Source: Pseudomonadota bacterium (GTDB lineage Bacteria; Pseudomonadota; Gammaproteobacteria; Xanthomonadales; SZUA-38). From it: a DNA stretch of 64,000 nucleotides. Positions 1-63,664 of this stretch are shown here, in pieces. The DNA is taken from the NCBI GenBank assembly GCA_039195135.1, contig JBCCVP010000002.1:11841-75840 (forward strand), written 5' to 3'. Every line of letters begins with the position of its first letter. Position 1 is the first letter of the stretch. A model generated the notes under the pieces. It saw nothing but the letters and a program-made list of their open reading frames with translations. It made no database searches and was not told the origin of the DNA. The position numbers were made by a program, and so were the translations under genes.

Positions 1-124
1 CGTTAACGCCCTCCTGACCCGCCTTGCATCTGCCGCACCTTAACCCCGTCCCACTTTTGTTTTTCTGATCCACCAGTGATGAAATCGCTTCACCGTAGGA
101 TCCACCACTGCTGAGTACGTAGCG

Positions 125-724: not shown

Positions 725-842
725 GCAGCGCCTATGCCCAGCGATACATCTGGGATATATCTGGGATAGCAAAATCGATCTGGCTCAGCGGCGGCAGCTG
801 TTCCACACTGGTCAGCCCTTGCTCTCACCTTCAGGAGCTTTT

Positions 843-7517: not shown

Positions 7518-7632
7518 GGGGTGAGTCTCCTTGGATGGTCTGGCGGACCTGTTCCCAGAGGCTACCAACCCCTCGGCAGATCGCCAATCTTAATTGGGGA
7601 AAGCTGCTTGTGTGCTTTTGGAAACCGCCACT

Positions 7633-8064
7633 TCACAGCCACGCCGCAAGCCACCGAAACAGGCCAAAACCCACCAGCACAATCGCCACCACAAAAAGGA
7701 GCGGCAGCAGAGCGCCGGCCCAGCGCTGGAGGCGCGGCTCCGGCGAACGCTGCTGCCGGCTTTCCAGCGCCTGAATCACGAGGGTGAGGTTGCGCCGGTT
7801 GGCGCGATAGGCCACGTCCAGAATATCGCCCAGTACCGGCACGAGACCCACCAGCGCGTCGAGCCCAATATTGCCGAGCATGCGGGCCCGGGTGGCAAGC
7901 GGCAGGTGCACCGCGTAGGACTGCCAGAAGATCACCAGGCTGAGCACGGTACCGGCGGCGTCGCCCACCCCCGGCACCAGCCCGATGAGACCATCCAGCC
8001 CAAAGCGCCACCTGGTGCCGGGGATGCGCAGGGACTGATCCAGCAGCCAGGACAGGCGACGCAT
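7633..8064 (-). CDS. DUF4112 domain-containing membrane protein
   Basis: LDQSLRIPGTRWRFGLDGLIGLVPGVGDAAG and VPVLGDILDVAYRANRRN are the characteristic DUF4112 pattern. Confidence 0.8.
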   Translation of the reverse strand: MRRLSWLLDQSLRIPGTRWRFGLDGLIGLVPGVGDAAGTVLSLVIFWQSYAVHLPLATRARMLGNIGLDALVGLVPVLGDILDVAYRANRRNLTLVIQALESRQQRSPEPRLQRWAGALLPLLFVVAIVLVGFGLFRWLAAWL

Positions 8065-8147
8065 CCGGGACAGGGCGCGGCGCTGCTGCTCACTGAGGCC
8101 GGGGAGCTCCGATCCAGCGTCAGGCAGGCGTGGCAGCTTCTGGCCCC

Positions 8148-31924: not shown

Positions 31925-31935
31925 AGCACTCGTCC

Positions 31936-43221: not shown

Positions 43222-43228
43222 GCCAGTG

Positions 43229-46951: not shown

Positions 46952-47044
46952 GCCCGGCTCGCTGGCGGGCGCTTCCGCGGCGGGTCAGCTCAAGGCTTGC
47001 GCGTTTTGACCGATCTATCCGGTGGATATGCGCAGGTTTACGTC

Positions 47045-48492: not shown

Positions 48493-49239
48493 CTACGCGC
48501 GATATTGACGGTAAATGTCGCGCACGTAATTCAGCGACGGGCGCACCGCCCAGCCTTTCACATCCTCGGCGATGGCTGGCGGCAGCACCACGTCCGCATA
48601 CTCCGGGTGGTTATCCGGATCCACCAGCGGCGCCAGCAGGCTGGCGGCGGCAAGATCGGCGCGACTGAAGGTATCGCCCAGCAGCACTTTCCTGCCGTCG
48701 CTGAGCAGCCCATCCAGCCAGTCCAGCTCCGTTTCCAAAATCGCTTTTGAGTCCAGACGCTGCTCCGGTCCCAGGTCCATGGCCTTGATCATAAGCTTGC
48801 GGATGGTGCTCCATCCCAGACGCACCTTCAGGTTTTCCAGCAGCGGCTGGCGGCGCAGAAAAATCGGCCGCACGGTTTCGGAGTGATTCACCAGCGCCTC
48901 GGAGTAGAAGTAGCGGCGCACGTGAATGCCGATCTTTTCATCAAGGCGCTTTTCGATGGCCAGCGCCTCCGACCGGTTTTGCGCACTGCTCAGTGCCGGA
49001 CCGCGTGCTTCCCGCTCCTCCGCCCAACTGACGATATCCGCTGACCCCTGAAGCACCGCTTCGCCGGTTTCCATCATGGGCAGCGCGCCCCGCTTGAAGC
49101 CGAGAGACCGGGCCTTCTTGATGTGCGCCCCGGGCGCCAGCGTACTCAGCGTGTAATCGATGCCCCGGTAGTCCAGCGCCCAGCGGGCTTTCTCGCAGTA
49201 GTGGGAGATGGCAAAGATGTGGAGGACAGGTTTTGACAT
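48493..49239 (-). CDS. glutathione S-transferase family protein
   Basis: Start re-called to ATG 49239. The N-terminal thioredoxin-like half is LHIFAISHYCEKARWALDYRGIDY...LPMMETGEAVLQGSADIVSW. Confidence 0.78.
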   Translation of the reverse strand: MSKPVLHIFAISHYCEKARWALDYRGIDYTLSTLAPGAHIKKARSLGFKRGALPMMETGEAVLQGSADIVSWAEEREARGPALSSAQNRSEALAIEKRLDEKIGIHVRRYFYSEALVNHSETVRPIFLRRQPLLENLKVRLGWSTIRKLMIKAMDLGPEQRLDSKAILETELDWLDGLLSDGRKVLLGDTFSRADLAAASLLAPLVDPDNHPEYADVVLPPAIAEDVKGWAVRPSLNYVRDIYRQYRA

Positions 49240-49356
49240 GGGCGTGCGCGGCCGGTTGTTGGGACAATCCAGCGCAGTATCCCACAGGCCCCGCGGGGTT
49301 TGCTCACGGCCGGGGCGACTGCGATCATGGGCGCCCCCCAAAACGCCGGAAAGGTC

Positions 49357-51402
49357 ATGCGACGACTGTTTCTATTCCTGATTTTGCCCACCGCCGTGCT
49401 CGCGGCCGAGGCCGACCCAACTGCCTTCACCGGGCTGGATGTCTTTGAGCTGGAGGTTGCGGCGGACCCGCAGGTCGCGCCGGACGGCTCCCGCATTGCC
49501 TACACCCGCCGGTCCATGAACGTGATGGTCGATCGGCCGGTATCACAGATCTGGATCATCGATGTGGACGGCGACCGGCACCGCCCGCTGGTGACCGGCC
49601 CGGCCTCCTACAGCAGCCCCCGCTGGTCGCCGTCCGGGGATCGCCTCGCGTACGTCAGCAATGTCGAGGGTCGGGGTCCACAGATCCACGTTCGCTGGAT
49701 GGATACCGGGCAGACGGCGGTGGTGACCAACGTGCGCTCCGCGCCGGGTTCGGTCACCTGGTCGCCGGATGGTCGGCAGCTGGCTTTCAGCCGGTTTGTG
49801 GAGGCGGACGGTAAGCCGCTCGCAAGTCCGCCGAAGAAGCCGGAAGGCGCCAAGTGGGCACCGCCAGTAAAGGTCATCGACCGGATGCCCTATCGCTTTG
49901 ACGGCGCCGGCTATCTGGACCCGGGTTTTAATCAGGTGTTTGTGGTTTCCGCGGAGGGCGGCACGCCGCGGCAGCTGACGCAGGGAAACTACAATCATGG
50001 CGGCCGCCTGGCCTGGACCAGCGATGGGGCGCGGCTGATCCTGGCCGCCAACCGGCAGCCCGACGCCAACCATGACCCGGTGGAGAGCGAGCTGTGGTCG
50101 GTGGACGTTGCCAGCGGCGAGATGACCGCCCTGACCGACCGGAACGGACCGGACACAGCGCCGACAATCTCGCCCGGGGGAGACACCGTCGCTTACCTGG
50201 GATTTAATGACCGGCGCCTGGGGTACCAGTCCCCGGACGTCTACCTGCTGGATTTAGGCGACCGCACGTCCCGCAACCTGACGGAGACCTTTGACCGGCA
50301 GATTGACGACGTCCAGTGGGCCGGCCGCAACCGCCTGATGATCCAGTACGACGACCGCGGCCAGACCCACCTGGCCACGCTGACGCTCGACGGCACGATC
50401 ACCGAGGTGACCAACGATGTGGGCGGGGTAGCCCTGGGCCGCCCGTACACCTCCGGCGGATTTATGGTCAACCGCGGCGGCGTCTTCGCCTACACCGCCG
50501 GGCGGCCTGACCGGCCGGCAGACCTCGCCGCCGGCCGCCGCGGCAAGGTCCAGCGCCTGACGGATCTGAACGAAGACGCGCTGGGTCACAAGCAGCTCGC
50601 CGCCATCGAGGAGGTCACCTGGCCGTCAAAAGACGGCAAGTACGAAGTTCAGGGCTGGATCGCCAAACCGGCCGGCTTTGATCCGGAGCGGCGCTACCCG
50701 ATGATCCTGGAGATCCACGGCGGACCGTTTGCCGCCTACGGACCCCAGTTTTCCCCGGAGGTACAGCTGTTTGCCACCGCCGGCTATCTGGTTTTCTACG
50801 CCAACCCGCGGGGATCCACCAGCTACGGGGACGCGTTTGCCAACGAAATCCATCACAACTACCCCAATGAGGACTACGACGATCTCATGGCCGGCGTCGA
50901 TACGCTCATTGAGCGCGGCCTGGTGGACCCGGACCGGCTGTTTGTCACCGGCGGCTCCGGCGGCGGGGTGCTCACCTCCTGGATCGTCGGCAAAACCCAG
51001 CGGTTCCGCGCCGCCGTGGTGGCCAAACCGGTGATCAACTGGATCAGTTTTACGCTCACCGCGGACGGCACTCACTTTTTCACCCGCTACTGGTTTGAGA
51101 AATTTCCCTGGGATGACCCGATGGCCTACTGGAAGCGGTCGCCGCTTTCGCTCGTGGGCAACGTCACTACCCCCACGGCCCTGCTGACCGGCGAAGCCGA
51201 CTACCGCACGCCGATCTCCGAGTCGGAGCAGTACTACCAGGCGCTTAAGCTGAGAAAGGTGGACACGGCGCTGATCCGCATTCCCGAAGCCTCCCACGGC
51301 ATCGCCGCGCGGCCATCCCATCTGATTGCCAAGATCGACAACATCGTGGCCTGGTTCGGCCGCTACGACGAGCAGCCGGAGGCCGCCGGGGAGGACGGTT
51401 GA
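49357..51402 (+). CDS. secreted S9 family serine peptidase (TolB-like propeller + prolyl oligopeptidase catalytic domain)
   Basis: Start re-called to ATG 49357. Signal peptide MRRLFLFLILPTAVLAA. PD40-type blades (PRWSPSGDRLAYVS, VTWSPDGRQLAFS). Catalytic triad context GGSGGG ... EASHG. Confidence 0.9.
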   Translation: MRRLFLFLILPTAVLAAEADPTAFTGLDVFELEVAADPQVAPDGSRIAYTRRSMNVMVDRPVSQIWIIDVDGDRHRPLVTGPASYSSPRWSPSGDRLAYVSNVEGRGPQIHVRWMDTGQTAVVTNVRSAPGSVTWSPDGRQLAFSRFVEADGKPLASPPKKPEGAKWAPPVKVIDRMPYRFDGAGYLDPGFNQVFVVSAEGGTPRQLTQGNYNHGGRLAWTSDGARLILAANRQPDANHDPVESELWSVDVASGEMTALTDRNGPDTAPTISPGGDTVAYLGFNDRRLGYQSPDVYLLDLGDRTSRNLTETFDRQIDDVQWAGRNRLMIQYDDRGQTHLATLTLDGTITEVTNDVGGVALGRPYTSGGFMVNRGGVFAYTAGRPDRPADLAAGRRGKVQRLTDLNEDALGHKQLAAIEEVTWPSKDGKYEVQGWIAKPAGFDPERRYPMILEIHGGPFAAYGPQFSPEVQLFATAGYLVFYANPRGSTSYGDAFANEIHHNYPNEDYDDLMAGVDTLIERGLVDPDRLFVTGGSGGGVLTSWIVGKTQRFRAAVVAKPVINWISFTLTADGTHFFTRYWFEKFPWDDPMAYWKRSPLSLVGNVTTPTALLTGEADYRTPISESEQYYQALKLRKVDTALIRIPEASHGIAARPSHLIAKIDNIVAWFGRYDEQPEAAGEDG

Positions 51403-51432
51403 TGCGCAGCGGCGGCACCAGCGGCTGACGCC

Positions 51433-52680
51433 TCAGGGTGGGCTGTCTTGCGTCGCCTCCGGCGGGGGCGGCGCGGGACGACAGACCAGCAGGTAAAGCG
51501 CCACCGCGAGCAGCGAAAAGCCGGCGGCCACCACAAAAGGTGCGCCGGGAAAATAAAGTCCCTTGTCGTCCGCCGCGAGGGTAAACAGGCCGTTGTAAAC
51601 CACCGGCGCCAGAATCATCGCCACGCTGACAAGCGCCGACAGGCCACCCTGCAGTTCGCCCTGGGCATCCTCGGGCACCCGCGCCGACATGTCCTGACGA
51701 ATGGCCGGGTCCTGCATCATGGAAATCAGCGCCAACGTCACCATCCCGTAGACGAACCAGGTCTGGGTGGCAAAGCCGATACCCGCAAGCGCCACCGCCT
51801 CCACCGCCAGCGCAATCCAGATGGCGTGGCGAACGCCCAGCCGGGGCAGCAGGAACTGAATCACCAGCGCCTGGGAAATAAACGCGATGACGCCGTAGTA
51901 GGCAATCGAATACCCCACCTGGGACTCGGTCCACGCAAACTTCTCTATTGCCACGTAGGCCCAGACGGTGGGATACACCCAGGTTGACAGCGCAGCGAGG
52001 AAAAACACCGGGAGCAGGGCACCCACCCCTGGCGTACGAAACAGCCGCAGCAGCGTGCCGAAGGTATTGGCCCGGGCCCACTCAAAGGGACGTCGCTTGG
52101 CCTCGGGCAGAGACTCCCGAACCACAAAATAGCCGTACAGCGCGTTTGCCAGCGCCAGTGCCGCTCCCGCGTAGAAGGGCAGCCGGACGTCGATGTCCCC
52201 AAGTATCCCGCCGATGCCGGGGCCAAAAATAAAGCCCGCGCCAAAGGCGGCGCCCAGCATCGCAAAACGCGTACCCCGTTTATCCGCCGGGGTTACGTCC
52301 GCCACGTAGGCATTGGTGGTGGAAAACGTGGACGCAAAGATGCCGGCAAACGCCCGCAGCAGCACAAACCCCCAGATGGTGCCGACAAACCCGAGAATGA
52401 ACAGATCAATGGCAAACGCGGACAGGGAGATGAGCAGCACCGGCCGGCGTCCGAAGCGGTCGGAAAGCGCGCCGACCACCGGTGAAAACACAAACTGCAT
52501 GACCGCGTAAACCACCAGCGCCAGCCCGCCCCAGCGGGATGCGTCGGCGATATCGCCGCCGGAAATCTCCATAATCAGCGCCGGCATCACCGGCGTGGTG
52601 AGACCGATCCCCATGGAGTTGATAAACGCGGTCACCATGAGAAAAACAAATGCCGCGCTGGTTGGCGGCGCTTCGGCCAT
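51433..52680 (-). CDS. MFS transporter (TetA/TCR-like drug:H+ antiporter family)
   Basis: 12 TM helices. Motif A-like GALSDRFGRRPVLLISL. N-terminus resembles the TCR/TetA family. Confidence 0.9.
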   Translation of the reverse strand: MAEAPPTSAAFVFLMVTAFINSMGIGLTTPVMPALIMEISGGDIADASRWGGLALVVYAVMQFVFSPVVGALSDRFGRRPVLLISLSAFAIDLFILGFVGTIWGFVLLRAFAGIFASTFSTTNAYVADVTPADKRGTRFAMLGAAFGAGFIFGPGIGGILGDIDVRLPFYAGAALALANALYGYFVVRESLPEAKRRPFEWARANTFGTLLRLFRTPGVGALLPVFFLAALSTWVYPTVWAYVAIEKFAWTESQVGYSIAYYGVIAFISQALVIQFLLPRLGVRHAIWIALAVEAVALAGIGFATQTWFVYGMVTLALISMMQDPAIRQDMSARVPEDAQGELQGGLSALVSVAMILAPVVYNGLFTLAADDKGLYFPGAPFVVAAGFSLLAVALYLLVCRPAPPPPEATQDSPP

Positions 52681-52778
52681 GGCTTCGTTCGGCGCTGTCT
52701 CGCTAATGGCAGTTTCCCGGATGGCTAAGGTCGGCCGGAGATGCTCGGCCGCGCAGGATGGACTCAGGAGAATAGCAC

Positions 52779-52808
52779 CGGCCCGGGCAAACCGGGACCG
52801 CTTTTGTT
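52779..52808 (+). terminator. orphan terminator-like hairpin in a divergent intergenic region
   Basis: CGGCCCGG (52779-86), loop gcaaa, CCGGGACCG (52792-800; one bulged base), followed by cTTTTgTTg. No + strand gene lies upstream of it within the intergenic region. Confidence 0.3.
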
Positions 52809-52962
52809 GCGATTTCCGGTCGGCCGGCGGCGTTCATGCCTCCGGCGGGTCGAGCAAGAGGGTCGAGATAAAGTCCTGCGGCCGTACCACCAGAACCGAG
52901 CGATTTGCCAAGCTCCGGGGCAAAGTGGTTTGGTACACTGCCGGGGGGCGAGGAGGAGCCTT

Positions 52963-53754
52963 ATGACTGTGCTGCTAAGACCCGCTTTTCTTCTGCTTTG
53001 CCTGGCACCAGTTCCCGTTACCCAGGCGTCCATCACCAGCGGCTTCGGCGCGGTGGCGGACGTGGGCTTTTTCGACGACTGCCGCACCCTTTGCCTGCGA
53101 CCGGGCGGGCTCACCGACCAGACCGTGAACGGCGGAGAGTTTTCCACCGGCACCGCCATCACGCTGACCTACAACCCCGCCCAAAGGGGCTTTGCGGCCG
53201 CCTCGTTTACCGGCGACGTGTTCAGCCCGGTGCTGCGGTCGAGCTCCCGCACGCCCGTGGACGCCGGCAACGCGATCGATGCCATCGCCACCGCGGTGCA
53301 GGGCTACACCTATCTTGGGGCTGCACCGGCGGACTACTCGGTACAGGTATCGTTAAGCGGCACCGTGGCGCAGCCGGCAAGCAACTCCGAAGGAGTGATT
53401 CGCGGTCGGGCCGCGGTGTACAGATACGAAAACGCCCGCTTCAGCACCGACTTTTCTTCTTTCATCCTGGAGGAAGTAGCCAGCGAGGGCGAAGTGCTGG
53501 CCACGGCCCAGCTGTTCTTGCTGCCAACTCTGGATCTGAGCCAGGGCACGCTGGACTTCACCCTGAATCCCGGCGACGAAGTCTACGTCTGGATGCAGCT
53601 CAGCACCAAAAGTGAGCGCGGCGCCGTGGTGGACGCGACCAACACCTTCGACCTCACATTCACCGCTGGCGATGTGTCGATGCTCGGCGCCCAGGTTGTG
53701 GACGGGGTCGACCCCGTCAATCTGTTTGCAGACGGGTTTGAGGAAGCGGACTGA
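52963..53754 (+). CDS. secreted hypothetical protein ending in an LFADGFE motif
   Basis: Start re-called to ATG 52963, 6 nt after aggagga. Signal peptide MTVLLRPAFLLLCLAPVPVTQA. No recognisable domain. Confidence 0.6.
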   Translation: MTVLLRPAFLLLCLAPVPVTQASITSGFGAVADVGFFDDCRTLCLRPGGLTDQTVNGGEFSTGTAITLTYNPAQRGFAAASFTGDVFSPVLRSSSRTPVDAGNAIDAIATAVQGYTYLGAAPADYSVQVSLSGTVAQPASNSEGVIRGRAAVYRYENARFSTDFSSFILEEVASEGEVLATAQLFLLPTLDLSQGTLDFTLNPGDEVYVWMQLSTKSERGAVVDATNTFDLTFTAGDVSMLGAQVVDGVDPVNLFADGFEEAD

Positions 53755-53767
53755 CGACCGCTGCTGA

Positions 53768-55030
53768 TCAGGCCCGGCCGGCGTCTTCCGTCGCCGGATC
53801 AAACCGCTGCATCCAGTCCGCAAGGTCAGTCCCGCTGGGCTGCTGATACGCCTTCAATCCAAACTCGTCAAGAATCGCCAGCAGGTGATCAAACAGATCT
53901 CCCTGAATCGCCTCGTAATCGCCCCAGGCGGTGGTGCTGGTAAAGCAGTAAAGCTCGATGGGGATACCGTCCGCCGCCGGCGCCAGCTGGCGCACCAGCA
54001 GCGTCATGTCCTTGCGGATCGAGGGGTGGTGGTCTAAATAGTTCGCCACGTAGGCGCGGAACGTGCCGAGGTTGGTCAGGCGCCGCAGGTTCACCTCGTC
54101 GTCCACCGGCAGCTCGAGCGCCGCGTTGTAGCGCTCGAGCTCCTCCCTTTTCCGGTCGATGTAGTCCCGCAGGAGCGCAAAGCGGCGAAAGTGCTCAATC
54201 TCGTCCGGCGTTAAGAACCGAACGCTCTGCATGTCGATGGTGATAGACCGCTTGATGCGCCGGCCGCCGGACTCGGACATCCCGCGCCAGTTTCGGAACG
54301 AGTCGGCGATGAGCTTGTGGGTTGGGATCGTGGTGATGGTTTTATCCCAGTTCTGCACTCGGATCGTGTGCAATGCCACGTCGATCACGTCACCGTCGGC
54401 GTTGTACTGGGGCATCTCGATCCAGTCGCCCCGGCGCACCATGTCGTTACCGGACAGCTGAATGGAGGCCACCAGCGACAAAATGGTGTCGCGGAATACC
54501 AGCAGCAGCACCGCCGTCAGCGCGCCGAAGCCCGACAGCAGAATCACCGGCGACTTATTGATCAGCGCCGAGACCACTAAAATGGCGCCGAGGCAGTACA
54601 GCACAATCTTGGCCACCTGCACGTAGCCTTTGATCGGTCGCCGCACCGCCTCCGGCCGCAGCTCGTAGATGCTGTTGGCGGTGGACAGCAGCGCGCTCAC
54701 CGCCATCACCAGCGCAATCACCGCGTAGGCGGCGCTGACGTTAGTGAGAATGGTCGCCGCCAGCTCCGGCAGGCCCGGCACCAGGCTGACGCCGACGTAC
54801 ACCACACCGGCCGGAAGCACGTGAGCAATGCGGGCAAAAAATCGATGCTCGATCAGAAAGTCGTCCCAGCGCGTGGCGGTGGCCCGGGCAATACCGCGGG
54901 CGCCGCGCACCAGCAGCGACTTGGCAATGACGTCGACGATGGCGCCTACCAGCAGCAGCAAAGCCACCCCAGCGGTGGGAAGCAGGGCCGGATGAATCGC
55001 GTTCAGCGCTTCGCTGATCTGTTCGTACAT
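53768..55030 (-). CDS. mechanosensitive ion channel family protein (MscS / YbdG-like)
   Basis: N-terminal TM helices. MscS core: GDWIEMPQYNADGDVIDVALHTIRVQNWDKTITTIPTHKLIADSFRNWRGM. Confidence 0.9.
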   Translation of the reverse strand: MYEQISEALNAIHPALLPTAGVALLLLVGAIVDVIAKSLLVRGARGIARATATRWDDFLIEHRFFARIAHVLPAGVVYVGVSLVPGLPELAATILTNVSAAYAVIALVMAVSALLSTANSIYELRPEAVRRPIKGYVQVAKIVLYCLGAILVVSALINKSPVILLSGFGALTAVLLLVFRDTILSLVASIQLSGNDMVRRGDWIEMPQYNADGDVIDVALHTIRVQNWDKTITTIPTHKLIADSFRNWRGMSESGGRRIKRSITIDMQSVRFLTPDEIEHFRRFALLRDYIDRKREELERYNAALELPVDDEVNLRRLTNLGTFRAYVANYLDHHPSIRKDMTLLVRQLAPAADGIPIELYCFTSTTAWGDYEAIQGDLFDHLLAILDEFGLKAYQQPSGTDLADWMQRFDPATEDAGRA

Positions 55031-55090
55031 GGGAAGCCCGGGCGGTCGGAAACCGCGCTATTGTATCGCTGAAGGGACCTGCCGTTGACT

Positions 55091-55627
55091 ATGCTCATCG
55101 CGTTTAACAAACCCTGCGGCGTGCTTTGCCAGTTCTCCGGCGAGGGGGCAACGCTAGCGGACTATATCGATGTACCCGGCGTCTATCCCGCCGGCCGGCT
55201 CGATAAAGAGTCCGAGGGATTGCTGCTGCTCACCGACGACGGCAGCCTGCAGGCGCGCATCAGCTCACCCCGCTTCAAGCAGCCCAAAACCTACTGGGTG
55301 CTGGTGGAGCGGGTGCCGACGGAGGCCGCGTTGCAAAACCTGCGACAAGGCGTGCCGCTGAAAGACGGTCTGACCCGACCGGCGCAGGCCCGGCGCATAC
55401 TTGCCCCGCCCAATCTCTGGCCCCGGGACCCGCCGGTGCGGCAGCGCAAGAACGTCGAAGACGTCTGGCTGGAGATCATCCTGCGGGAGGGTCGAAACCG
55501 ACAGATCCGGCGCATGACCGCCGCGGTCGGGCACCCGACGCTGCGGCTGGTGCGGTACGCAATCGGCACCCGGACCGTTGCGGGCCTGGCGCCGGGGCAA
55601 TGGCGGGAGATCAACCCGCACGGCTGA
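55091..55627 (+). CDS. rluE: rRNA pseudouridine synthase, RsuA/RluE family (no S4 domain; RluE-like)
   Basis: ATG 55091 (the track start at 55085 is TTG). Motifs: FNKPCGVLCQF, catalytic AGRLDKESEGLLLLTDDG, KTYWVLV, GRNRQIRRM. Confidence 0.8.
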   Translation: MLIAFNKPCGVLCQFSGEGATLADYIDVPGVYPAGRLDKESEGLLLLTDDGSLQARISSPRFKQPKTYWVLVERVPTEAALQNLRQGVPLKDGLTRPAQARRILAPPNLWPRDPPVRQRKNVEDVWLEIILREGRNRQIRRMTAAVGHPTLRLVRYAIGTRTVAGLAPGQWREINPHG

Positions 55628-55712
55628 GGAGCCAGTGCCGCACTCGGGGCGCGTTGGCGCGGTGCCAGGGCGCGTGCTATACCTTTTGAGGGCAGGGAGC
55701 GGGAAGCAGTCC

Positions 55713-58700
55713 GTGGTCAGTCCAGGACGGATTGAGAAATCATTGGTCAAATCGTGTCGCGCGCTGAGCTTCATCTCGGCCTGCGGGCTCACGCTTGGCC
55801 TGATCACCGGCGCCGGCGCCCAGCCTTTCAACCTCATCGACCGGACCGGCCAGTGCGTTACCTCGCCGCTGCTGGGTCTCAGTCAAAATATTGATCCGCC
55901 GGGCACAAGCCAGATCGTGCGCAGTGCCGATCGGTTTCGCGTCCCGGACGGGCCGGACTGGCGCCTGGACAGCGTCCAGGCGCAGGGAACGTTCAGCGGC
56001 AGCCAGGTGAACCCTCTGGGGGCCGACGTGCGCATATTTGCCAACGACGGCGCTTCCCCGGGGCCGGGAACGCAGGTCTGCACCTACTCATTCCCTCTCG
56101 CGGAAATTGGTCCCCTGGCCAACAGTGGCCAGTTTGACATCACGCTCCCCGGGGGCGCCCAGGCCTGCCAGCTGTCCGCCGGCGACTACTGGTTTTCTGT
56201 CGCCTTTCTCGGGACTATCGGCGTGAATCCAGCCCAGGGTCGGTTCTGGTACTGGAACCAGTCCACGGAAAACCAGCAGGGGAATTGGCAGATGCGGGCG
56301 GCGGACGATATCGACGCCAGCGGCATCAACTGCCCCGACTGGGTGACCCGGGAGCAGTGCTCGGCCGTCACCCAGGAGCGCGGCCTGTGTTTTGCCATCA
56401 GCGGCAACACGCCGATCACGTTGGCCGAACCGCTGGCGGACCAGTTCACCAGCGCCGGCACCAGCTTCCTCATGGACGTGTCGTCCGCGTTCACCGATCC
56501 GGACGGCGACGACGCCTTCTACCAGGCCATCGGCCTGCCCGCCTCGCTGACGCTCAACGAGGCCACCGGACGCATCAGCGGCACGATCGAGGCCGGCGAT
56601 GTCGCCGGCAGTCCCTACACGGTGGAAATCACCGCCACCGACGACGATGACGTCAGCGCGGAGGACACGTTCCGCCTGGTGGTGGCGGACGATGAGGTGG
56701 CGGATTTTCGCTTTCAGCGCCTCTGGCCGGTGCTGCAGCAGCCCTGGTACTTCGGCACCAGCGCGCCCGACTTAAGCTTCAATGGCTCCACCCTGTTTGT
56801 CGCCAACCCCACCTTCTCCCGCATCCAGCGCTTCAGCCCGGCCGGGAAGCACATCAGCAACCTGTTCATTCCCGGCCCCGGCGGCCCCGCCACCCGGGGC
56901 AAGCCTCGCGTACTGGCCGCCAGCACCCGCGCGGTTTTTACCGCCGGAGATCTGGACCCCCAGATCTACAAGCTGGGCCTGAACGGTGAAGTCCTGGACC
57001 GCTTCGGCGCTGACGAGCTGGCGGGCCAGGTGCCGCAGTTTCTGGAAGCGACCGAAAGAGGCTGCCGCCGGCTGGGCGGCTGTGTCTATGTCGGTCTTGC
57101 GGATGAGGTGCTGAAATTCAGCGAAGACGGTCAGTTTCTGAGCCGGTTTGGCCTTTGCGCCGACCCGCCGTGCGAAAACGGTACGGTGCAGCAGCTCGGC
57201 GGCCTTACGGTGGGTCCCGATGGCCTTGTCTACCTGACGGATCAGGCGGAAGACCAGCTGATTATTCTGCGCACCTCGCCCGCCGCAGCGCTGATCGACC
57301 CGCCCGAGTTCCTTGCCGAAATTGGCGAACCAGGCAGCGGGCCGGGGCAGTTTGCCAGTCCCGGGGATGTCTCCCTGGACGGAGCCGGGCGCGTCTACGT
57401 GGCGGACGCAAACCGGGTGCAGGCGTTTTCGCCGCAGGGTGTGCCGCTGGATGAGTACGTGGCGCCTAGCGAAGCCCAGGTATTGCGGCGCCTGGAGTTT
57501 GGGCCAGAGCGGCTGGCGTTCGGCAGCAATGATCTGGCGCAGGTAACGCGCTTCCGCCGCGTCGGCGACGTGGACGCCGGCGCTTCGACGCTGAACTTCT
57601 CAACGCCGTTTTCCAGCGCCGACGACCGGGTGGGGTTTTTCCAGCAGCCGATTGATCTCGCCACCGGACCCAACAGCAACGTTTACGTGGCTGATGCGGG
57701 CAATCATCGGGTGCAGAAGTTTGATCCAGCCGGGCAGCTGCTCAACGCATTTGGCAAAGAAGGTGACGAGGACGGCGAGTTTGGCCGAATGATCGCTATC
57801 GGCACCGGTTCCATCGCGGGCGAACTGCGCGCCCACGTGCTGGACGAAAACATCACGGGCTATCGGATTCAGCGCTTCACGAGCGGCGGCGACTTTGTTG
57901 ACAGCATCGCCCTGCCCGGCAACGACGACTACGTCGACATGGAAATCGGCAGCGGCGGCGCCGCCTTTCTGGTCACCGCCGCAGGTCTCGCGGTCAAGGT
58001 GTCAACGCAGGGCGAGGTGCTGGCCACCTGGGAGCCGATGGCGTCCGGCGCGCAGTTTCTGCAGGTGGCCCAGGCGCCCAACGGCCTGTTTTACTTCACC
58101 GTGCAGGGTCAGAGCCAGGAAGGCTTTGCGATCTACGACCGGTTCGGCAACTTTGTTGCCTTTCTACCGGCCACCTTCAACGCGCCCGCGTCTTTGAGCG
58201 TCGCCGGCGACGGCAAGATTGTGCTGGGGGAGATTCCGGACATTGCGCCGGACGTGCCGCGCATCAAAATCTACCGCCAGGACGGCGTGCTGCTGCAGTC
58301 GGTGGGCCAGTACGGCTATTTCCCCGGGTCGTTTGCGGCGCCGGCAGGGCTGGATTTTGCACCCAACGGGCTGCTCTACATCAGCGACTCGGTCAACAAC
58401 TACGTGCAGGTGCTCGACCCGGTGCCGCCGGCGGAGATCACCCGGGCCGTAGTGGTGGCCGGCGGTGGTCCCTACCCGGGAAACAACCTGTGGGAAACCA
58501 CCCAGGCGCTGACCAACGGCGCCTACCTGGCGCTGGCCTACCAGGGCCTGCGGGCCGAGGACATTACCTACCTGTCGTCCAATCTCGACGAAGACCTCGA
58601 CGGCAACGGCATCTCCGACGTGGACTTTCCCGCCAGCGCCCCGTCGCTGGTGACCGCCATCAGCATGGCGGCGGACGGCGCGGACCGGCTTGTCGTCTAT

Positions 58701-61700
58701 CTTGCCGACCACGGCTCGGAAGATGTCTTTCGGGTGAGCCCCCAATCGGTGCTCGACGCCGCAGCGCTGGATGCGGCCCTCGACAGCGCCCAGAGCGGCC
58801 CGACCGCCGTCGACCAGCTTGTCCTGATCTACGATGCCTGCCGCGCCGGCAGCTTCGTCGACGACCTGGCCAGCCCCGGGCTCAACCGCATTGTGCTGGC
58901 CAGCACCGGTGCCGACGAAAGCGCCAAATTTGTATCCGGCGGGATCTTGAGCTTCTCCAACCAGTTCTGGACCCAGATCTTCACCGGGGCTGATCTGGCG
59001 GCTGCCTACGCCAGCGCCTCGCAGATCATGACCACGTCTTTTTCCGACCAGACCCCGCTGGCGGACGCCGACGGTGATGCCAACCCGAACGAAAGCGCCG
59101 ACGACCTGACCGCGCTCAGCGGCGTGTTTATTGGCGCCGGCACCAATTTCGATCCCGGCGCGCCGGTGATCGCCAGCGTCTCCGATCCGCAGGTGCTGGC
59201 CGACGGAAACGAGGCGCAGATAAGCGCCTTCGGCGTGACCGATCCCGACGGCGTGGCGCGCGTCTATGCCGAAATTGTGCCGCCCAATTTTGTCGACGGC
59301 GACATCGACCAGCCGGTGCAGGCGTTTCCCGGCTTCGAATTGGAGCCGGATGCACCGGGAAGCAGCGACTACACCCTGATCTTCGACCGCTTCAGCAGCG
59401 AGGGGACGTATACGATCAATGTTTACGCCCAGGATCGTTTTGGTAATCTCTCCGCCCCCGCGACCACTACCGTTACCGCTGGCAACCCGGAGCTGCGCAA
59501 GGCACTGCTGATTGTCGGCGGGGAAACCAGCGACCCGCGCTGGTCTGCCTACAGCGCCAACGGCGCCTTCGCGTACGCCGCCCTCACCGCCCAGGGCTAC
59601 AGCGACGCGGGCCTGGAAACCGTTCGCTACCTGTCCAACGGCGGAACGGACGGTGTCGATGACGTCGCCAGCAGCGCCACGGTTGCCGGCGCCTTTGCCT
59701 GGGCCGGCGAACAGGCCCAGGACGTGGTGGTCTACCTGGTGGGTGGGGTTCGCAGTGGCGCCCTGCGGCTCGCCAGCGGTGAACGGCTCACCGCCCTTGA
59801 GCTGAGCGGCTATCTGGATATGCTGGAGGCCAGCATCAGCGGCAAGCTGGTGGTGCTGTATGACGGCAACCGGTCCGGCGCGTTTCTGCCCCGGCTGACC
59901 TCCCCAAATCCCGGCAGGCGAATCCTGCTGACCAGCACCGCCGCGTCGGAAAGCGCCAGCTTTCTGCTGGAGGGAGCTTTAAGCTTCTCGCAGTTTTTCT
60001 GGAACCAGGTGCTGAACGGTGCCACGGTGCTCGAGGCGTTCGAGACGGCTCGGGATGCGGTAGGTTTTTCCGCCGGCGACCAGACGCCGCAGCTTGATGA
60101 CAATGCCAACGGCGAAGGCAACGACGCCGAAGATGGTTTTGTCGCCAGCACCTACGACATCGGCGCCGGGATTGTGCAGGACATCAATGGACCCAGCGCG
60201 GGTGCCCTGACGCCCGACATCCAGCTCACCGGCGGCGTCACCCAGGCCACCATCACGGTGAACAACGTCACCAGCGCCTCCGGCGTGGATGAGGTGTTCG
60301 CCATCGTGGGAAGCCCACCGCCGCAGCAGACTTCTGACACGTTTGTGCTGGCGCCGGTCACTGTGGATGGCAACGGCAACGGGCAGTACGACGGCACCTA
60401 CGCCAACTTCGGGCCTTTGCCGGGCGGTGGCTATGCCGCCGGGTTTTATCTGGTCACCGTCTATGTTCGGGATCAGCGCGGCAACATCGCGCTCCACGAC
60501 ACGGTGCGGGTTGAGCAGTCGGCGGGGCCGGACGGGTGGGAGGATGACGACATTCCGGTCGAGGCGTCGGTGATCTTTGTCGATGACGCCGACGCCCAGC
60601 GGCACACGTTGCATGAGGATGATGACAGCGACTTTGTCTCCTTCAACGCCGTGAACCGCAGCGGATCGGCCCAGACCTATGAGCTCTCGGTGTCGGAGAT
60701 TGATGATTACTCCGGCGGCACCTACAACGTTACCCTGGAGCTCTACGGGCCAACCACGCCGCCGGGTTCTCCCCTGGCCACCGCCACGGGCGGGATCAGC
60801 GGCAGCGTTTCCCTCACCTGGCCGTCTTCCGGCAATTCCTATGATGAAGGCGAAGGTGAGTACTACCTGCGGGTGCTGGCCGCCAGCGGTACTCAACGCG
60901 GGCGCTACGCGGTGCGGGTGTTCCGTCCGGCGGTGCCGCTGACGGGCGCGGTCCGGGGCAGCGTGGTAGACGCCCTGACGGGCGAACCGGTCCCGGGAGC
61001 CCTGATTGCCACCAGCGGCACCGTCGCCGCCGCGAGCAACCTGATCGGCGAATACCAGCTGGTGGAAAACCCGGGCACCTACAGCCTGACCGTGACGCCA
61101 CCGGCCGGATATCTGCCGCTCACGGAAAACAACGTGCCCGTTTCCGAAAGCCTCACCACCTGGCGGCTGCTGCAGGTTCAGCCCAGCGGCGCCGCGCCGT
61201 CGGTTCAGACGGGCGAAGCCACCGGCATTACCCAGACCACCGCCACCCTCAACGGCCTGGTGGCGCCCAACGGTGAGCTCACCGCCGTGGTGTTTGAAAT
61301 CCTGCCGGCGGGCCCGGCGATCACGCAGCCGCCGGACGTTGCGGGGGATGCCCCGCAGAGCGACGCGGCGGCGCAGGTTACGGGCCTGACCTGCGAAACC
61401 GACTACACCTTCCGGATCACCGCCAGCAACGCAACGGGCAGCAGCAACGGCGCCAGCGAAGCGCTGCGCACCGCCGACTGCGTTGCGCCGCCGGTGCTGA
61501 CCACCGTCACCGCCAGCAACCTTAGCGATGAGACCGCCCGGCTGGAGGCGTCGGTGGATCCGGTGGGCAGCGAAACCATCACCGCGTTCCGCTGGCGCCC
61601 CGCGGGCGGTGTGTTTAATCCCTACCAGGACTCGCCCGATGTGCTCACCGGCAGCGGGACCCAGGTGGCGGGCCTGAACATCGACACCCTGACCTGCGCC

Positions 61701-63053
61701 ACCGTCTACGACTACCAGGCGCGCGCCAGCAACGCCGGCGGCACCGCCGAATCGACGGTGCAGAATTTCAGCACGGCGGTCTGCCCACAGACGCCCCCGA
61801 CGGTGGTTACGCTGGCGGCCCAGAACATCACCGAAACCGGCGCGGACCTGCGCGCCTCGGTGGACGCGAACGGCGACACCGCGAGCGTTGAGTACCGCAT
61901 CAACGCGGTAGGCGACGCGCCGGGCGCCTGGCAGACCGCCGGCACCGTGGCCACCTCGGAGCAGGTGACGGTCACCGTCAGCAGTCTGGATTGCGGCCGC
62001 GACTACCAGTACCGCTTCCGCGCCAGCAACAGCGGCGGCACCACGGAAGGGTCCGACCAGGGGCTGACCACGCTGGACTGCGCCGACGATTTCCCCGAGG
62101 TCCAGACGGACCCCGCCACGCTCGTCGGGCAAACCAGCGCCACGGTAAATGCGCTGGTCGACCCCAATGGCAGCAGCACCCAGGTGTTTTTTGACTACGG
62201 CCTTTCCGGCCTGCTCGACGAAACGCTGGCGTTGGAAAGTCCACTTGAGGGCAGCGACCCCGTCAGCCAGTCGGCCCGGCTGGAAGGCCTGGCCTGCGGC
62301 CAGCAGTACAGCTACCGGGTGCGCGGCAGCAACACCGCCGGGACCGCTTTCGGTGCCACCCGCACCTTCACCACCAACCCCTGCGACCGGATCCTGCTGG
62401 TGGACGACGACAGCAATAGTCCGGACCTGACGCCGGTTTACGGCGGTTTGCTGGACACGCTGGGGTTCGCCTACACCGTATGGAATACGGGTGGGGAGGA
62501 CGCCGAGCCGCAGGCCGGTGACCTCGCGCCCTACAGCACCGTGCTGTGGTTTACCGGCGACAACGCCGCCGCCGGCACCGGACCGGGCCCCGCCGGTGAG
62601 GCGGCGCTGGCGGATTATCTCGACGCCGGGGGCTGTCTGGCGCTCAGCGCGCAGAATTATTTTGCCGTCCGCGGACCCACGCCGACGACGCTGATGAGCG
62701 ACTACCTCGGGGTGGCCGGCGGCGTCGCCAATGCCGGGCTGCAGAACGTTGCCGGGGTCTCCAGCGCCTTTGCCGGGCTCCCCACTTCCGGCACTTATCT
62801 GCTTGATTTTGCCGGCGCATCATTGAGCTCCGCAGCAGACGAACTCACCGTTACCGGCGGCGGCGAGGTGGCATTTGAAGGCGACGGCCAAGCCACGGCG
62901 GGCATCCAGGTGATCGCCGACAGCTATCGATCCCTGTTCCTCGGCTTTCCGCTGGCGGCCATTCCTGGAGCGGCCGAGGGGGGGGCAGCGCTGAGCGCGG
63001 TGCTCGACTTCTGCCGCGGCCAGGATGTTTTGTTCAGCAATGGATTTGAGTGA
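55713..63053 (+). CDS. giant secreted multidomain protein (He_PIG/cadherin-like Ig, NHL propellers, 2x C13 legumain-like+Ig modules, PPC-like, CarboxypepD_reg-like, 4 Cys-pair repeats, alpha/beta C-terminal domain)
   Basis: Continuous ORF to TGA 63051-53. There is no ATG near the signal peptide (KSCRALSFISACGLTLGLITGAGAQP). Candidate starts are GTG 55713 (6 nt after gggaag) or TTG 55743. The track start at 55578 overlaps rluE and encodes Arg/Gly-rich junk. Domain motifs are listed in the findings. Confidence 0.85.
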   Translation: MVSPGRIEKSLVKSCRALSFISACGLTLGLITGAGAQPFNLIDRTGQCVTSPLLGLSQNIDPPGTSQIVRSADRFRVPDGPDWRLDSVQAQGTFSGSQVNPLGADVRIFANDGASPGPGTQVCTYSFPLAEIGPLANSGQFDITLPGGAQACQLSAGDYWFSVAFLGTIGVNPAQGRFWYWNQSTENQQGNWQMRAADDIDASGINCPDWVTREQCSAVTQERGLCFAISGNTPITLAEPLADQFTSAGTSFLMDVSSAFTDPDGDDAFYQAIGLPASLTLNEATGRISGTIEAGDVAGSPYTVEITATDDDDVSAEDTFRLVVADDEVADFRFQRLWPVLQQPWYFGTSAPDLSFNGSTLFVANPTFSRIQRFSPAGKHISNLFIPGPGGPATRGKPRVLAASTRAVFTAGDLDPQIYKLGLNGEVLDRFGADELAGQVPQFLEATERGCRRLGGCVYVGLADEVLKFSEDGQFLSRFGLCADPPCENGTVQQLGGLTVGPDGLVYLTDQAEDQLIILRTSPAAALIDPPEFLAEIGEPGSGPGQFASPGDVSLDGAGRVYVADANRVQAFSPQGVPLDEYVAPSEAQVLRRLEFGPERLAFGSNDLAQVTRFRRVGDVDAGASTLNFSTPFSSADDRVGFFQQPIDLATGPNSNVYVADAGNHRVQKFDPAGQLLNAFGKEGDEDGEFGRMIAIGTGSIAGELRAHVLDENITGYRIQRFTSGGDFVDSIALPGNDDYVDMEIGSGGAAFLVTAAGLAVKVSTQGEVLATWEPMASGAQFLQVAQAPNGLFYFTVQGQSQEGFAIYDRFGNFVAFLPATFNAPASLSVAGDGKIVLGEIPDIAPDVPRIKIYRQDGVLLQSVGQYGYFPGSFAAPAGLDFAPNGLLYISDSVNNYVQVLDPVPPAEITRAVVVAGGGPYPGNNLWETTQALTNGAYLALAYQGLRAEDITYLSSNLDEDLDGNGISDVDFPASAPSLVTAISMAADGADRLVVYLADHGSEDVFRVSPQSVLDAAALDAALDSAQSGPTAVDQLVLIYDACRAGSFVDDLASPGLNRIVLASTGADESAKFVSGGILSFSNQFWTQIFTGADLAAAYASASQIMTTSFSDQTPLADADGDANPNESADDLTALSGVFIGAGTNFDPGAPVIASVSDPQVLADGNEAQISAFGVTDPDGVARVYAEIVPPNFVDGDIDQPVQAFPGFELEPDAPGSSDYTLIFDRFSSEGTYTINVYAQDRFGNLSAPATTTVTAGNPELRKALLIVGGETSDPRWSAYSANGAFAYAALTAQGYSDAGLETVRYLSNGGTDGVDDVASSATVAGAFAWAGEQAQDVVVYLVGGVRSGALRLASGERLTALELSGYLDMLEASISGKLVVLYDGNRSGAFLPRLTSPNPGRRILLTSTAASESASFLLEGALSFSQFFWNQVLNGATVLEAFETARDAVGFSAGDQTPQLDDNANGEGNDAEDGFVASTYDIGAGIVQDINGPSAGALTPDIQLTGGVTQATITVNNVTSASGVDEVFAIVGSPPPQQTSDTFVLAPVTVDGNGNGQYDGTYANFGPLPGGGYAAGFYLVTVYVRDQRGNIALHDTVRVEQSAGPDGWEDDDIPVEASVIFVDDADAQRHTLHEDDDSDFVSFNAVNRSGSAQTYELSVSEIDDYSGGTYNVTLELYGPTTPPGSPLATATGGISGSVSLTWPSSGNSYDEGEGEYYLRVLAASGTQRGRYAVRVFRPAVPLTGAVRGSVVDALTGEPVPGALIATSGTVAAASNLIGEYQLVENPGTYSLTVTPPAGYLPLTENNVPVSESLTTWRLLQVQPSGAAPSVQTGEATGITQTTATLNGLVAPNGELTAVVFEILPAGPAITQPPDVAGDAPQSDAAAQVTGLTCETDYTFRITASNATGSSNGASEALRTADCVAPPVLTTVTASNLSDETARLEASVDPVGSETITAFRWRPAGGVFNPYQDSPDVLTGSGTQVAGLNIDTLTCATVYDYQARASNAGGTAESTVQNFSTAVCPQTPPTVVTLAAQNITETGADLRASVDANGDTASVEYRINAVGDAPGAWQTAGTVATSEQVTVTVSSLDCGRDYQYRFRASNSGGTTEGSDQGLTTLDCADDFPEVQTDPATLVGQTSATVNALVDPNGSSTQVFFDYGLSGLLDETLALESPLEGSDPVSQSARLEGLACGQQYSYRVRGSNTAGTAFGATRTFTTNPCDRILLVDDDSNSPDLTPVYGGLLDTLGFAYTVWNTGGEDAEPQAGDLAPYSTVLWFTGDNAAAGTGPGPAGEAALADYLDAGGCLALSAQNYFAVRGPTPTTLMSDYLGVAGGVANAGLQNVAGVSSAFAGLPTSGTYLLDFAGASLSSAADELTVTGGGEVAFEGDGQATAGIQVIADSYRSLFLGFPLAAIPGAAEGGAALSAVLDFCRGQDVLFSNGFE

Positions 63054-63079
63054 CTGACCAACCCGCGGGGAGCCTTGCC

Positions 63080-63442
63080 ATGACCGAACGCGTTGCCCCG
63101 TCCGCCTGGTCCCAGGCCGCGTACCTCGCCGTGGGTGTGGTGCTTCTGCTGTGGGGCATCGGCGGGCTCATCATCTACGTTGCCTACTTCATCGAAACCC
63201 CGGATGAATTTGCCCTGACCGCCGAAACCGCCGCCAACCGGGACGCCTATGCCCAGTACGTGGCCAATATTCCCTGGTGGGCCATCGGTGCGGGACTCAT
63301 CGCCGCGGCAGCGCGCTTTCTCGGCGCGATTGGCCTGTTGCTGCGCAAAGCCTGGGCGCTGCCGCTGTATATCATCGCCCTCATCTTTTTTGCCGTCGCC
63401 CTGTTCCGCGCGTTTGGCTGGCAGACGTCGCCAGCGTCATGA
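63080..63442 (+). CDS. small membrane protein (3 TM as written; a 4th TM is encoded in a different reading frame (63277 ORF) through 63540 - possible frameshift)
   Basis: ATG 63080, or GTG 63050 overlapping the giant-gene stop as GTGA. Three clear TM helices. The overlapping frame from ~63415 to the TAG at 63538-40 encodes ADVASVMSPAHVGIEVTFVALSLFAIGFAYWHKSRGLLT. Confidence 0.5.
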   Translation: MTERVAPSAWSQAAYLAVGVVLLLWGIGGLIIYVAYFIETPDEFALTAETAANRDAYAQYVANIPWWAIGAGLIAAAARFLGAIGLLLRKAWALPLYIIALIFFAVALFRAFGWQTSPAS

Positions 63443-63544
63443 GCCCGGCCCACGTAGGCATCGAAGTCACCTTCGTAGCCCTGAGCCTGTTCGCCATCGG
63501 CTTCGCGTATTGGCACAAATCCCGCGGCCTCCTGACGTAGGCCC

Positions 63545-63571: not shown

Positions 63572-63664
63572 TCGAAAGTGCCGCTATATAGGACAAGCGT
63601 CGGAGTTAAGTTTCCGACGGATCTTGTTCGTCAGCCGCTCGAAAGAAATCCGCGCGAGGGGCCC

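Follow-up and report, generated by a model that had tools for sequence, protein, structure and literature searches.

A predicted exported legumain-family (C13) peptidase combining NHL propellers with one intact and one disabled protease module in a gammaproteobacterial metagenome-assembled genome

The 64,000-nucleotide stretch of Pseudomonadota bacterium assembly GCA_039195135.1 analyzed here (contig JBCCVP010000002.1, positions 11,841 to 75,840 of the forward strand; hereafter, the window) contains a gene encoding a 2,436-aa multidomain protein, referred to as the giant. The source is an uncultured Lysobacterales-like gammaproteobacterium. Based on its sequence, it is reasonably likely that the giant is a legumain-family (C13, clan CD) cysteine endopeptidase, exported by Sec and stabilised by disulfides, that acts outside the cytoplasm, would bind its target through beta-propellers and has become detached from the usual operon of its orthologues. 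The original prediction, made from the letters alone, had described an exported mosaic of NHL blades and C13-like modules, and this description is borne out by a conserved signal peptide and by matches to PF01436 and PF01650, both above their cut-offs.

The peptidase assignment comes from the first of two C13 modules, C13a, which matches PF01650 (Peptidase_C13) with 38.0 bits against a cut-off of 22.8 (E = 1.7e-9); the paralogues score 31-34 bits on the same model. Two tandem modules, each made of a C13 peptidase-like and an Ig-like part, had been predicted. Both C13 modules are real, since C13a and C13b share 33% identity (tblastn E about 1e-17 to 1e-23), which indicates an internal duplication, but catalytic potential is limited to the first. 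When 12 a-modules and 11 b-modules of orthologues, paralogues and one distant relative were aligned, DHG and Y(D/E)AC.SGSF are found in all 12 a-modules, down to 46% identity, and the window copy has ADHG (His990) and YDACRAGSF (Cys1033), in the order His then Cys. The catalytic His is missing in all 11 b-modules, and the Cys column holds Gly in 10 of them, with L012 having a Cys shifted by one position. Judged by these residues, only C13a can be catalytic, and C13b is a conserved pseudo-peptidase. The distance from His to Cys is 43 residues in the window protein, and the distant relatives have a fixed 41-residue gap between the motif matches.

The profile of the 23 modules, compared with PDB sequences, matches plant asparaginyl endopeptidase (AEP; 5h0i, 3.7e-6), butelase (6dhi), chain K of 7w72, which is the catalytic subunit of the glycosylphosphatidylinositol (GPI)-anchor transamidase, and legumain (4aw9), with E-values from 3.7e-6 to 0.07; metacaspase-4 (0.086) and CHAT (0.9) are at the bottom of its matches. 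Among solved structures, the nearest to C13a are thus C13 enzymes and not members of C14, C11 or C25. In the printed alignment with 5h0i, the catalytic DHG (His) and EAC/DAC (Cys) motifs are aligned, the legumain-family form being EACESGS. A homologue search with the C13 tandem alone returned only 7 matches.

All 21 Cys of the mature protein are invariant across the orthologues; twenty of them form ten domain-local pairs, which leaves Cys1033 unpaired. That only the catalytic Cys is unpaired fits a thiol protease in an oxidising, extracytoplasmic compartment. Together with a dyad that is invariant in module a while module b has drifted, the sole unpaired Cys points to selection on catalysis. 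Export is predicted from a Sec-type signal peptide; a signal peptide had been proposed originally, and it is conserved in the orthologues, with the AxA↓Q cleavage site kept in five of six. A lipoprotein reading of the ISAC in the signal peptide was ruled out, as no orthologue has a Cys there.

The NHL region, placed between the He_PIG domain and C13a (Table 1), matches PF01436 in four scored stretches (E = 2.6e-16 to 3.6e-19, 68 bits) and the PDB NHL domains of Thin (6d69, 7e-26) and TRIM71 (8j72, 1e-18), which confirms the NHL claim. A match to the NCBIfam model ScyF (2e-32) is far below its 350-bit cut-off. The blades, counted by eye from the sequence at about 12, probably form two six-bladed propellers. 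The hallmark FRFQRLWPVLQQPWYF, which opens this region, is found again in paralogues and distant relatives where their mature protein begins, and RLWPxLQQPW or a close variant is found in several of the distant relatives, in exact form in P0009, P0011, P0012, P0013 and P0199. The NHL-C13 tandem family, as defined here, comprises in order a signal peptide, RLWPxLQQPW, NHL blades, an active C13, an Ig, a dead C13 and a second Ig domain; the core from residue ~320 to ~1600 is common to the window protein, the orthologues, the paralogues L011, L012 and L013-L016, and P0007.

Table 1. Features of the giant gene and its immediate neighbours, in window positions, with residues of the giant where given.
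Feature	Position	Residues	Strand	Remarks
Giant gene	55743..63053		+	TTG start of NCBI call; 2436 codons + stop
Sec-type signal peptide	55743..55820		+	MVKSCRALSFISACGLTLGLITGAGA↓QP, read from sequence
N-terminal Cys-rich domain	55821..56414	27-224	+	predicted all-beta, six invariant Cys
He_PIG (dystroglycan/cadherin-like) Ig domain	56415..56684	225-314	+	PF05345, E 1.6e-13
NHL region	56697..58430	319-896	+	opens with family hallmark FRFQRLWPVLQQPWYF; ~12 blades
C13a, legumain-type peptidase domain	58431..59153	897-1137	+	His990 58710-58712, Cys1033 58839-58841
Ig/PKD-like domain 1	59154..59489	1138-1249	+	weak PKD (4e-4), InlK_D3 (1e-3)
C13b, paralogous pseudo-peptidase	59490..60182	1250-1480	+	Gly1334 replaces His, Gly1375 replaces Cys
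Ig-like domain 2	60183..60524	1481-1594	+	by position and length only, parallel to Ig1
Acidic beta-rich domain	60525..60935	1595-1731	+	conserved in orthologues and P0007
CarboxypepD_reg-like (transthyretin-like) domain	60936..61190	1732-1816	+	PF13715 (CarbopepD_reg_2), 6e-5, below cut-off
Four diverged fn3-like repeats	61191..62384	1817-2214	+	~100 aa and one conserved Cys pair each
C-terminal alpha/beta domain	62385..63026	2215-2428	+	class I glutamine-amidotransferase-like (flavodoxin-like) fold
C-terminal tag VLFSNGFE	63027..63050	2429-2436	+	general form hydrophobic-F-x-D/N-G-F-E
rluE-like pseudouridine synthase, upstream neighbour	55085..55627		+	PF00849, 4.8e-17; context only
Small membrane-protein gene, downstream neighbour	63080..63442		+	ATG 63080 with GGGGAG Shine-Dalgarno sequence; weak tetraspanin-like match only

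Several observations weigh against an exported endopeptidase of this kind. The PF01650 match spans only profile positions 108-186 (79 of 258). The Asn/Asp-specific S1 pocket of legumain includes Arg44-His45 and Glu187, and its Arg-His (NYRHQ) aligns with a conserved LWE(T/A)TQ in the family, in which RH becomes T-T or A-T; the acidic residue before Ala-Cys, as Y(D/E)AC, is the only S1 element kept. With the Arg-His replaced, neither Asn specificity nor a substrate class can be assumed. The N-terminal Cys-rich domain, to which a binding function is assigned below, gives a weak AlphaFold2 (AF2) model (pLDDT 52.8, beta strands only, 6 sequences), and Foldseek finds no match to this model at E<=0.001. 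No partner gene of the orthologue operon was found within the 64-kb window by tblastn with the operon proteins and Pfam on ~20 ORFs, and the C-terminal tag is a candidate sorting or processing signal whose role we infer.

The same S1 replacement would suit a non-catalytic surface adhesin or binding protein, in which the C13 folds would only space out the other parts, and the work would fall to the propellers together with the Ig and fn3 domains. The bulk of the protein does consist of binding or stalk-type domains, and one C13 copy is certainly dead. Against this, the His and Cys of module a are invariant in orthologues, paralogues and distant relatives, module b having drifted freely, and the sole unpaired Cys of the protein is precisely Cys1033. 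On the sequence evidence, a pure adhesin is considered unlikely.

The giant ends in a short tag, and all six orthologues end in (I/L)(Y/F/H)x(D/N/S)GFE followed by 0-4 residues. In a set of 196 proteins (269,754 residues), 32 of the 33 strict regular-expression matches lie within 25 aa of the C-terminus, a zone that holds 2.3% of all residues. The tag is unstructured in the AF2 model (pLDDT ~52 over the last residues). The paralogues carry it after an Ig-like domain, and it is also present on four different proteins of locus L005 and on a beta-helix protein of L016. In the window, a 263-aa protein with a signal peptide (52963-53754, + strand) ends in NLFADGFEEAD, and another signal-peptide protein (8148-10067, - strand) also ends in the tag. 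As a side observation, unrelated signal-peptide proteins of the window and of L005, L011 and L013-L016 end in the tag plus 0-11 residues. In some tags the Asx position is taken by Ser (ASGFE, VSGFE, DSGFE), and a long form, FADGFESGDTSAWSxxVP, is found in other lineages. Neither NCBIfam nor Pfam has a model for the tag, and literature searches gave no description of it.

The original prediction had reported no sorting signal. This holds for known signatures: the NCBIfam and Pfam sorting or repeat models (PEP-CTERM, GlyGly-CTERM, IPTL-CTERM, LPXTG, the C-terminal domain (CTD) of the type IX secretion system (T9SS) and the RTX repeats of the type I secretion system (T1SS)) do not match the giant, whose NCBIfam matches are only ScyF (NHL) and a weak OmpL47. 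Likewise, neither an autotransporter signature nor a C-terminal transmembrane helix with a basic tail was found, and the whole protein contains no 19-mer with a hydrophobicity score above 1.6. The conserved tag VLFSNGFE had, however, been overlooked. The distant NHL-C13 proteins, which have the signal peptide, RLWPxLQQPW, NHL and C13, end in PEP-CTERM-like transmembrane helices with RRRR tails or in dockerin-like modules. These ends indicate a family built for the cell surface or exterior, and because they replace the tag, they suggest that the tag fills a sorting or anchoring slot.

One way of combining the tag with the protease would have C13a act as a sorting enzyme or transpeptidase, much as GPI transamidase and the plant asparaginyl ligases do: it would recognise the Asx-Gly-Phe-Glu tag of the giant itself and of other exported proteins, cut off what follows the Asx and then link or release the protein. 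The C13 family includes the GPI-anchor transamidase and peptide asparaginyl ligases, both among the profile matches, and ligases recognise tripeptides such as N-G-L, which the tag F-x-(D/N)-G-F-E resembles as Asx, small and hydrophobic. The tag is also terminal, unstructured and present on C13 proteins as well as on other signal-peptide proteins of the same genomes. However, the Asx-binding Arg-His of legumain is missing, some tags have Ser at the Asx position, the long form is carried by many proteins for whose genomes co-occurrence with C13 would have to be assumed, and there is no acceptor or anchor candidate, which makes this reading quite improbable. The broader proposal, that the tag is an undescribed signal by which Gammaproteobacteria and other phyla sort or process exported proteins and that the NHL-C13 proteins are its dedicated processing enzymes cleaving after Asx, is likewise a long shot; if true, it would be a bacterial counterpart of C13-mediated C-terminal transpeptidation. 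A short C-terminal tag on unrelated exported proteins could in any case be a new sorting signal and of use for annotation.

The operon to which the endopeptidase reading refers is found in each of the other eight orthologue loci, which come from six or seven assemblies, as far as the contigs reach. It includes, in order, genes for the two-partner secretion (TPS) exoprotein TpsA, the giant, a C14 peptidase, the transporter TpsB, a CHASE2 plus adenylate/guanylate cyclase protein and a 275-aa protein, flanked by OmpA ← DUF928 ← TPR-CHAT on one side and by a response regulator with EAL domain (RR-EAL), then Hpt ← hybrid kinase ← Roc GTPase on the other. The TpsA has ~1750 aa (a 1752-aa protein, TPS domain 7.4e-38), the C14 peptidase has ~575 aa with a signal peptide and DUF4384, and TpsB is a ShlB/POTRA_2 transporter encoded two genes downstream of the giant. 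Successive genes overlap by 1-8 nt, and the operon is translationally coupled. The C14 and CHAT neighbours retain HG and AC motifs. The loci with this operon are L001-L004, L006-L011, L018 and L019, with three clan-CD-type proteases per envelope locus, and the arrangement appears undescribed: among the literature searched, no paper joins "two-partner secretion" with CHAT or CHASE2, and searches on the operon and DUF928 found no description. Association of C14 and CHAT peptidases with a CHASE2 sensor has been reported for cyanobacterial metacaspases (PMC2853523) and EACC2 systems (PMC8195603); these are fusions and intracellular effector systems, unlike the orthologue operon.

The statement of the original prediction that no secretion or anchoring partner is nearby is correct for the window, but the loci of the orthologues do have the TpsA/TpsB pair. 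Judged by identity, the window protein falls inside the orthologue group. It is thus an orthologue-grade copy that no longer belongs to the operon, or perhaps an additional copy. Neither P0007 nor the paralogues are part of the orthologue operon. In L011, a shorter NHL-C13 paralogue (5666-9922), with an active and dead tandem and ending in YIFVSGFEQ, is found between TpsA and the giant, which indicates that the family was duplicated in situ.

Given the ShlB/POTRA_2 transporter two genes downstream in the orthologue operons, the giant could be imagined as the passenger of TpsB, a second, atypical TpsA-like exoprotein with the N-terminal Cys-rich domain, specific to the operon-linked orthologue group, as its recognition module. 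This is highly improbable, because the giant lacks a TPS domain and the adjacent 1752-aa protein, with a canonical one, is the obvious TpsB substrate; moreover, the N-terminal domain is predicted to be a disulfide-rich beta-sandwich, unlike an unfolded beta-helix passenger, and no TpsB was found in the window. Similarly, a reading of the giant as TpsA itself was rejected, with no PF05860 match at E<=1 and the TPS domain in the neighbour protein instead.

The giant gene lies in a single uninterrupted + strand open reading frame (ORF), 55578..63053, with its stop at 63053, in agreement with the 7.3-kb ORF originally described. The product from TTG 55743 is a 100% match to the NCBI protein P0001 (2436 aa) of a metagenome-assembled genome (MAG); the residue numbering of P0001 is used here. 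Other in-frame starts are GTG 55713, the start of the original prediction, with a better Shine-Dalgarno-like GGGAAG upstream, and GTG 55635, the start in the Logan gene call; all three candidates retain the same hydrophobic core and the likely AGA↓QP cleavage site. GC content at third codon positions (GC3) is even (~0.82), and composition is uniform along the ORF. No DNA tandem repeats were found within it, which rules out a repeat-collapse artefact. The rluE-to-giant junction is also present in a separate assembly from Logan, L017, which over window positions 49153-55979 is 99.68% identical. Full-length orthologues from separate assemblies have the same whole architecture at 54-65% identity, P0006 being the most divergent of the group (55%), and six orthologues are collinear with the giant over 100% of its length, with the catalytic and Cys positions all kept. 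The ORF is genuine and not a fusion artefact, so the doubt raised with the original prediction, that a fusion or an assembly artefact of repeats had been read, does not apply. Other explanations would be that the ORF was chimerically assembled, that separate genes were fused or that a rearrangement stranded a pseudogene now in decay. The MAG source and the position of the window copy as the sole orthologue found outside the operon might suggest such an origin, which is extremely improbable in view of the unbroken frame, the even GC3 and composition, the collinear orthologues with their conserved residues, the lack of tandem repeats and the confirmed 5' junction.

Separately, the whole protein (55743-63050) is very acidic and lysine-poor, with D+E at 11.9% and K at 0.5%. 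His makes up 0.3%, one of them catalytic, and the composition resembles that of exoproteins of saline habitats.

For the exported legumain-family endopeptidase, the following mode of action is proposed. The 12-blade NHL double propeller, together with the N-terminal beta domain and the He_PIG domain, would bind the target, which C13a would cleave via His990 and Cys1033. C13b, the twin without both catalytic residues, may act as a fixed scaffold or regulator of C13a, and the distal Ig, CarboxypepD_reg-like, fn3 and glutamine amidotransferase (GATase)1-like domains may form a stalk or provide further binding modules. The C-terminal tag F-x-D/N-G-F-E would direct sorting, retention or processing after Sec export. 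The giant would take part in proteolysis in the envelope, linked to a two-partner-secreted filament and to cyclic-nucleotide signalling, such as maturation or release of TpsA. In its ancestral setting it would work with the TpsA filament or on it, controlled by cyclic nucleotides; both the action on TpsA and the final localisation of the giant are inferred. The window copy, alone between rluE and the small membrane-protein gene, would function uncoupled from an operon, or together with partners whose genes are located elsewhere.

Among the remaining domains, the N-terminal Cys-rich region of ~210 aa had been described as belonging to no known family, and it indeed has no match in Pfam, NCBIfam or PDB sequences; a protein homologue search with this domain alone also gave no matches. 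It is restricted to the orthologue group and absent from the paralogues: tblastn matches to the paralogues start at residue ~320, and in those with the N-terminus read the RLWP motif comes straight after the signal peptide. The He_PIG domain was correctly assigned (PF05345), and Ig-like domain 2 has no significant hidden Markov model (HMM) match. A PPC-like domain had been proposed at ~60525-60925; it is not supported, as PF04151 has no match at E<=10 on three isolated segment copies, nor on the whole protein, and a profile search of the PDB with this acidic beta-rich domain was empty. The CarboxypepD_reg-like assignment stands, with the PF13715 match below cut-off and a match to PDB carboxypeptidase D at 4e-5, and PF13620 is precomputed for the orthologue P0003. 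The four repeats of ~100 aa noted earlier are fn3-like, with matches to fn3 (1e-13), FN3_DSCAM (4e-12) and Pur_ac_phosph_N (3e-11).

The C-terminal alpha/beta domain, also foreseen by the original prediction, has a confident AF2 model (34 sequences, pLDDT 91.4, pTM 0.90). Its top Foldseek matches are 8hx9_B, 2a9v, 8rp0 and 2d7j (probability 1.00, TM-score 0.54-0.63), and 2gk3 is likewise matched; the matches to 2a9v, 8hx9, 8rp0 and 2gk3 have E about 1e-6 and a TM-score about 0.6, and they place the domain in the class I glutamine-amidotransferase-like fold. Invariant in the 34 homologues are an LLVDDD acidic strand, a GGC elbow and two Cys (Cys89 and Cys215), and the domain has a GFPxE relic. 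The sequence at the elbow reads GGC(L)xxSxQ, and GFPxE takes the place of the GATase HPE. No conserved His is found among the invariant columns of these homologues, hence no Cys-His-Glu triad, and the domain cannot be classed as an amidotransferase; Cys2424 is the probable disulfide partner of the elbow Cys. A phmmer search of 1.84 billion representatives gave 1001 clusters at E<=1e-3, 139 of them at <=1e-30, and in proteins P0048-P0196 the domain occupies varied positions in many extracellular multidomain proteins, sometimes in several copies. Neither Pfam nor NCBIfam has a model for this large extracellular GATase1-like family, whose description would be of use for annotation.

In the window, the giant is preceded by genes for the rluE-like protein, MscS, the 263-aa tagged protein, a major facilitator superfamily transporter and an S9 peptidase, and downstream of it come the small membrane-protein gene and, where the window ends, an amine oxidase gene in convergent orientation. 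The rluE and small membrane-protein flanks are as originally stated. The start of the downstream gene had been said to overlap the stop of the giant; however, ATG 63080, with GGGGAG, is more plausible than the overlapping GTG 63050. Co-occurrence of this gene with the orthologues, proposed as a check, was not seen, as it has no match in loci L001-L017, and it was ruled out as a linked partner. The small membrane ORF shares part of its length with an ORF in a different frame (63277-63540), which codes for a further hydrophobic helix, and the pair at 63050-63540 may be one gene split by a frameshift or sequencing error. A terminator-like hairpin (63598-63619) follows the small membrane gene, and promoter and terminator scans near the giant gave nothing else useful. 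No TPS, T1SS or Omp85 genes were found in the checked parts of the 64 kb, which were covered by a Pfam scan of ~20 of the ~47 window ORFs and by tblastn with the operon proteins. Elsewhere in the window, two adjacent genes on the - strand (28679-35187) encode proteins of ~1085 aa each with BNR/Sortilin-Vps10-type beta-propellers, a tandem pair of large probable exoproteins. A 696-aa protein (43208-45298) with a short patatin-like N-terminal match only and a GGDEF diguanylate cyclase (46997-48439) have no connection to the giant as far as checked.

Consistent with the original claim that no characterised protein has this combination, none was found in the PDB sequence searches or in the literature searched, which also contains no description of a bacterial NHL-C13 protein. 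The NCBI names of family members are generic, for example "C13 family peptidase" or "putative Ig domain-containing protein", and to our knowledge no bacterial legumain-family (C13) protein has been biochemically characterised. All parts belong to known domain types, and the novelty lies in their conserved combination, in the tandem of active and dead C13 and in the link to the operon. Large mosaic exoproteins are common in MAGs, no current view is overturned, and the window copy is without operon context. The NHL-C13 family does provide a defined and conserved model for a bacterial legumain, with one free catalytic Cys, a built-in pseudo-enzyme partner and predicted targeting by propellers. 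The orthologue operon unites a two-partner secretion pair, three clan-CD-type proteases (C13, C14 and CHAT) and a CHASE2 cyclase, and it may link secretion, extracytoplasmic proteolysis and cyclic-nucleotide signalling.

Compared with known systems, the NHL region resembles by significant sequence match the propellers of TRIM71, Thin, Brat and bacterial ScyF. These are single six-bladed propellers of RNA- or protein-binding or scytonemin proteins, unlike the giant, which has ~12 blades upstream of a protease, preceded by the RLWPxLQQPW motif. The C-terminal domain has the same fold as class I GATases (the GMP synthase GATase subunit 2a9v, PabA, STM3548 2gk3 and the GH-associated GATase1-like proteins) but is, unlike them, extracytoplasmic and without the conserved His.

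Control of adhesins by a periplasmic cysteine protease is known from LapG, whose targets are LapA and the TPS adhesin CdrA and which is controlled by cyclic di-GMP. For the orthologue operon only, the likeness is that a TPS exoprotein with its transporter, exported cysteine proteases and cyclic-nucleotide enzymes (cyclase, EAL) are found in one locus. LapG is a transglutaminase-like protease and not a member of clan CD; unlike in its system, no LapD-like receptor is seen in the orthologue operon, and the link is drawn from gene order alone and is absent in the window.

The best sequence relatives of C13a are legumain/AEP and GPI8/PIGK (MEROPS C13, clan CD). The giant differs from them in that only the central profile matches, the S1 Arg-His is replaced and there is no legumain-type C-terminal prodomain; in addition, its C13 is bacterial, duplicated into an active and a dead copy and placed inside a 2,436-aa multidomain protein. 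The gingipains RgpA and Kgp of Porphyromonas (MEROPS C25, clan CD) offer a functional analogue. They are large secreted cysteine proteases that consist of a catalytic and a related non-catalytic alpha/beta half, behind which come an Ig-like domain, adhesin-type domains and a C-terminal sorting element. They belong to C25 and not to C13, have the active and inactive halves in another order, lack NHL propellers and use a T9SS CTD, which is absent from the giant. For the inactive twin itself, the pseudo-protease domain of separase and the A/B subdomains of gingipains are precedents.

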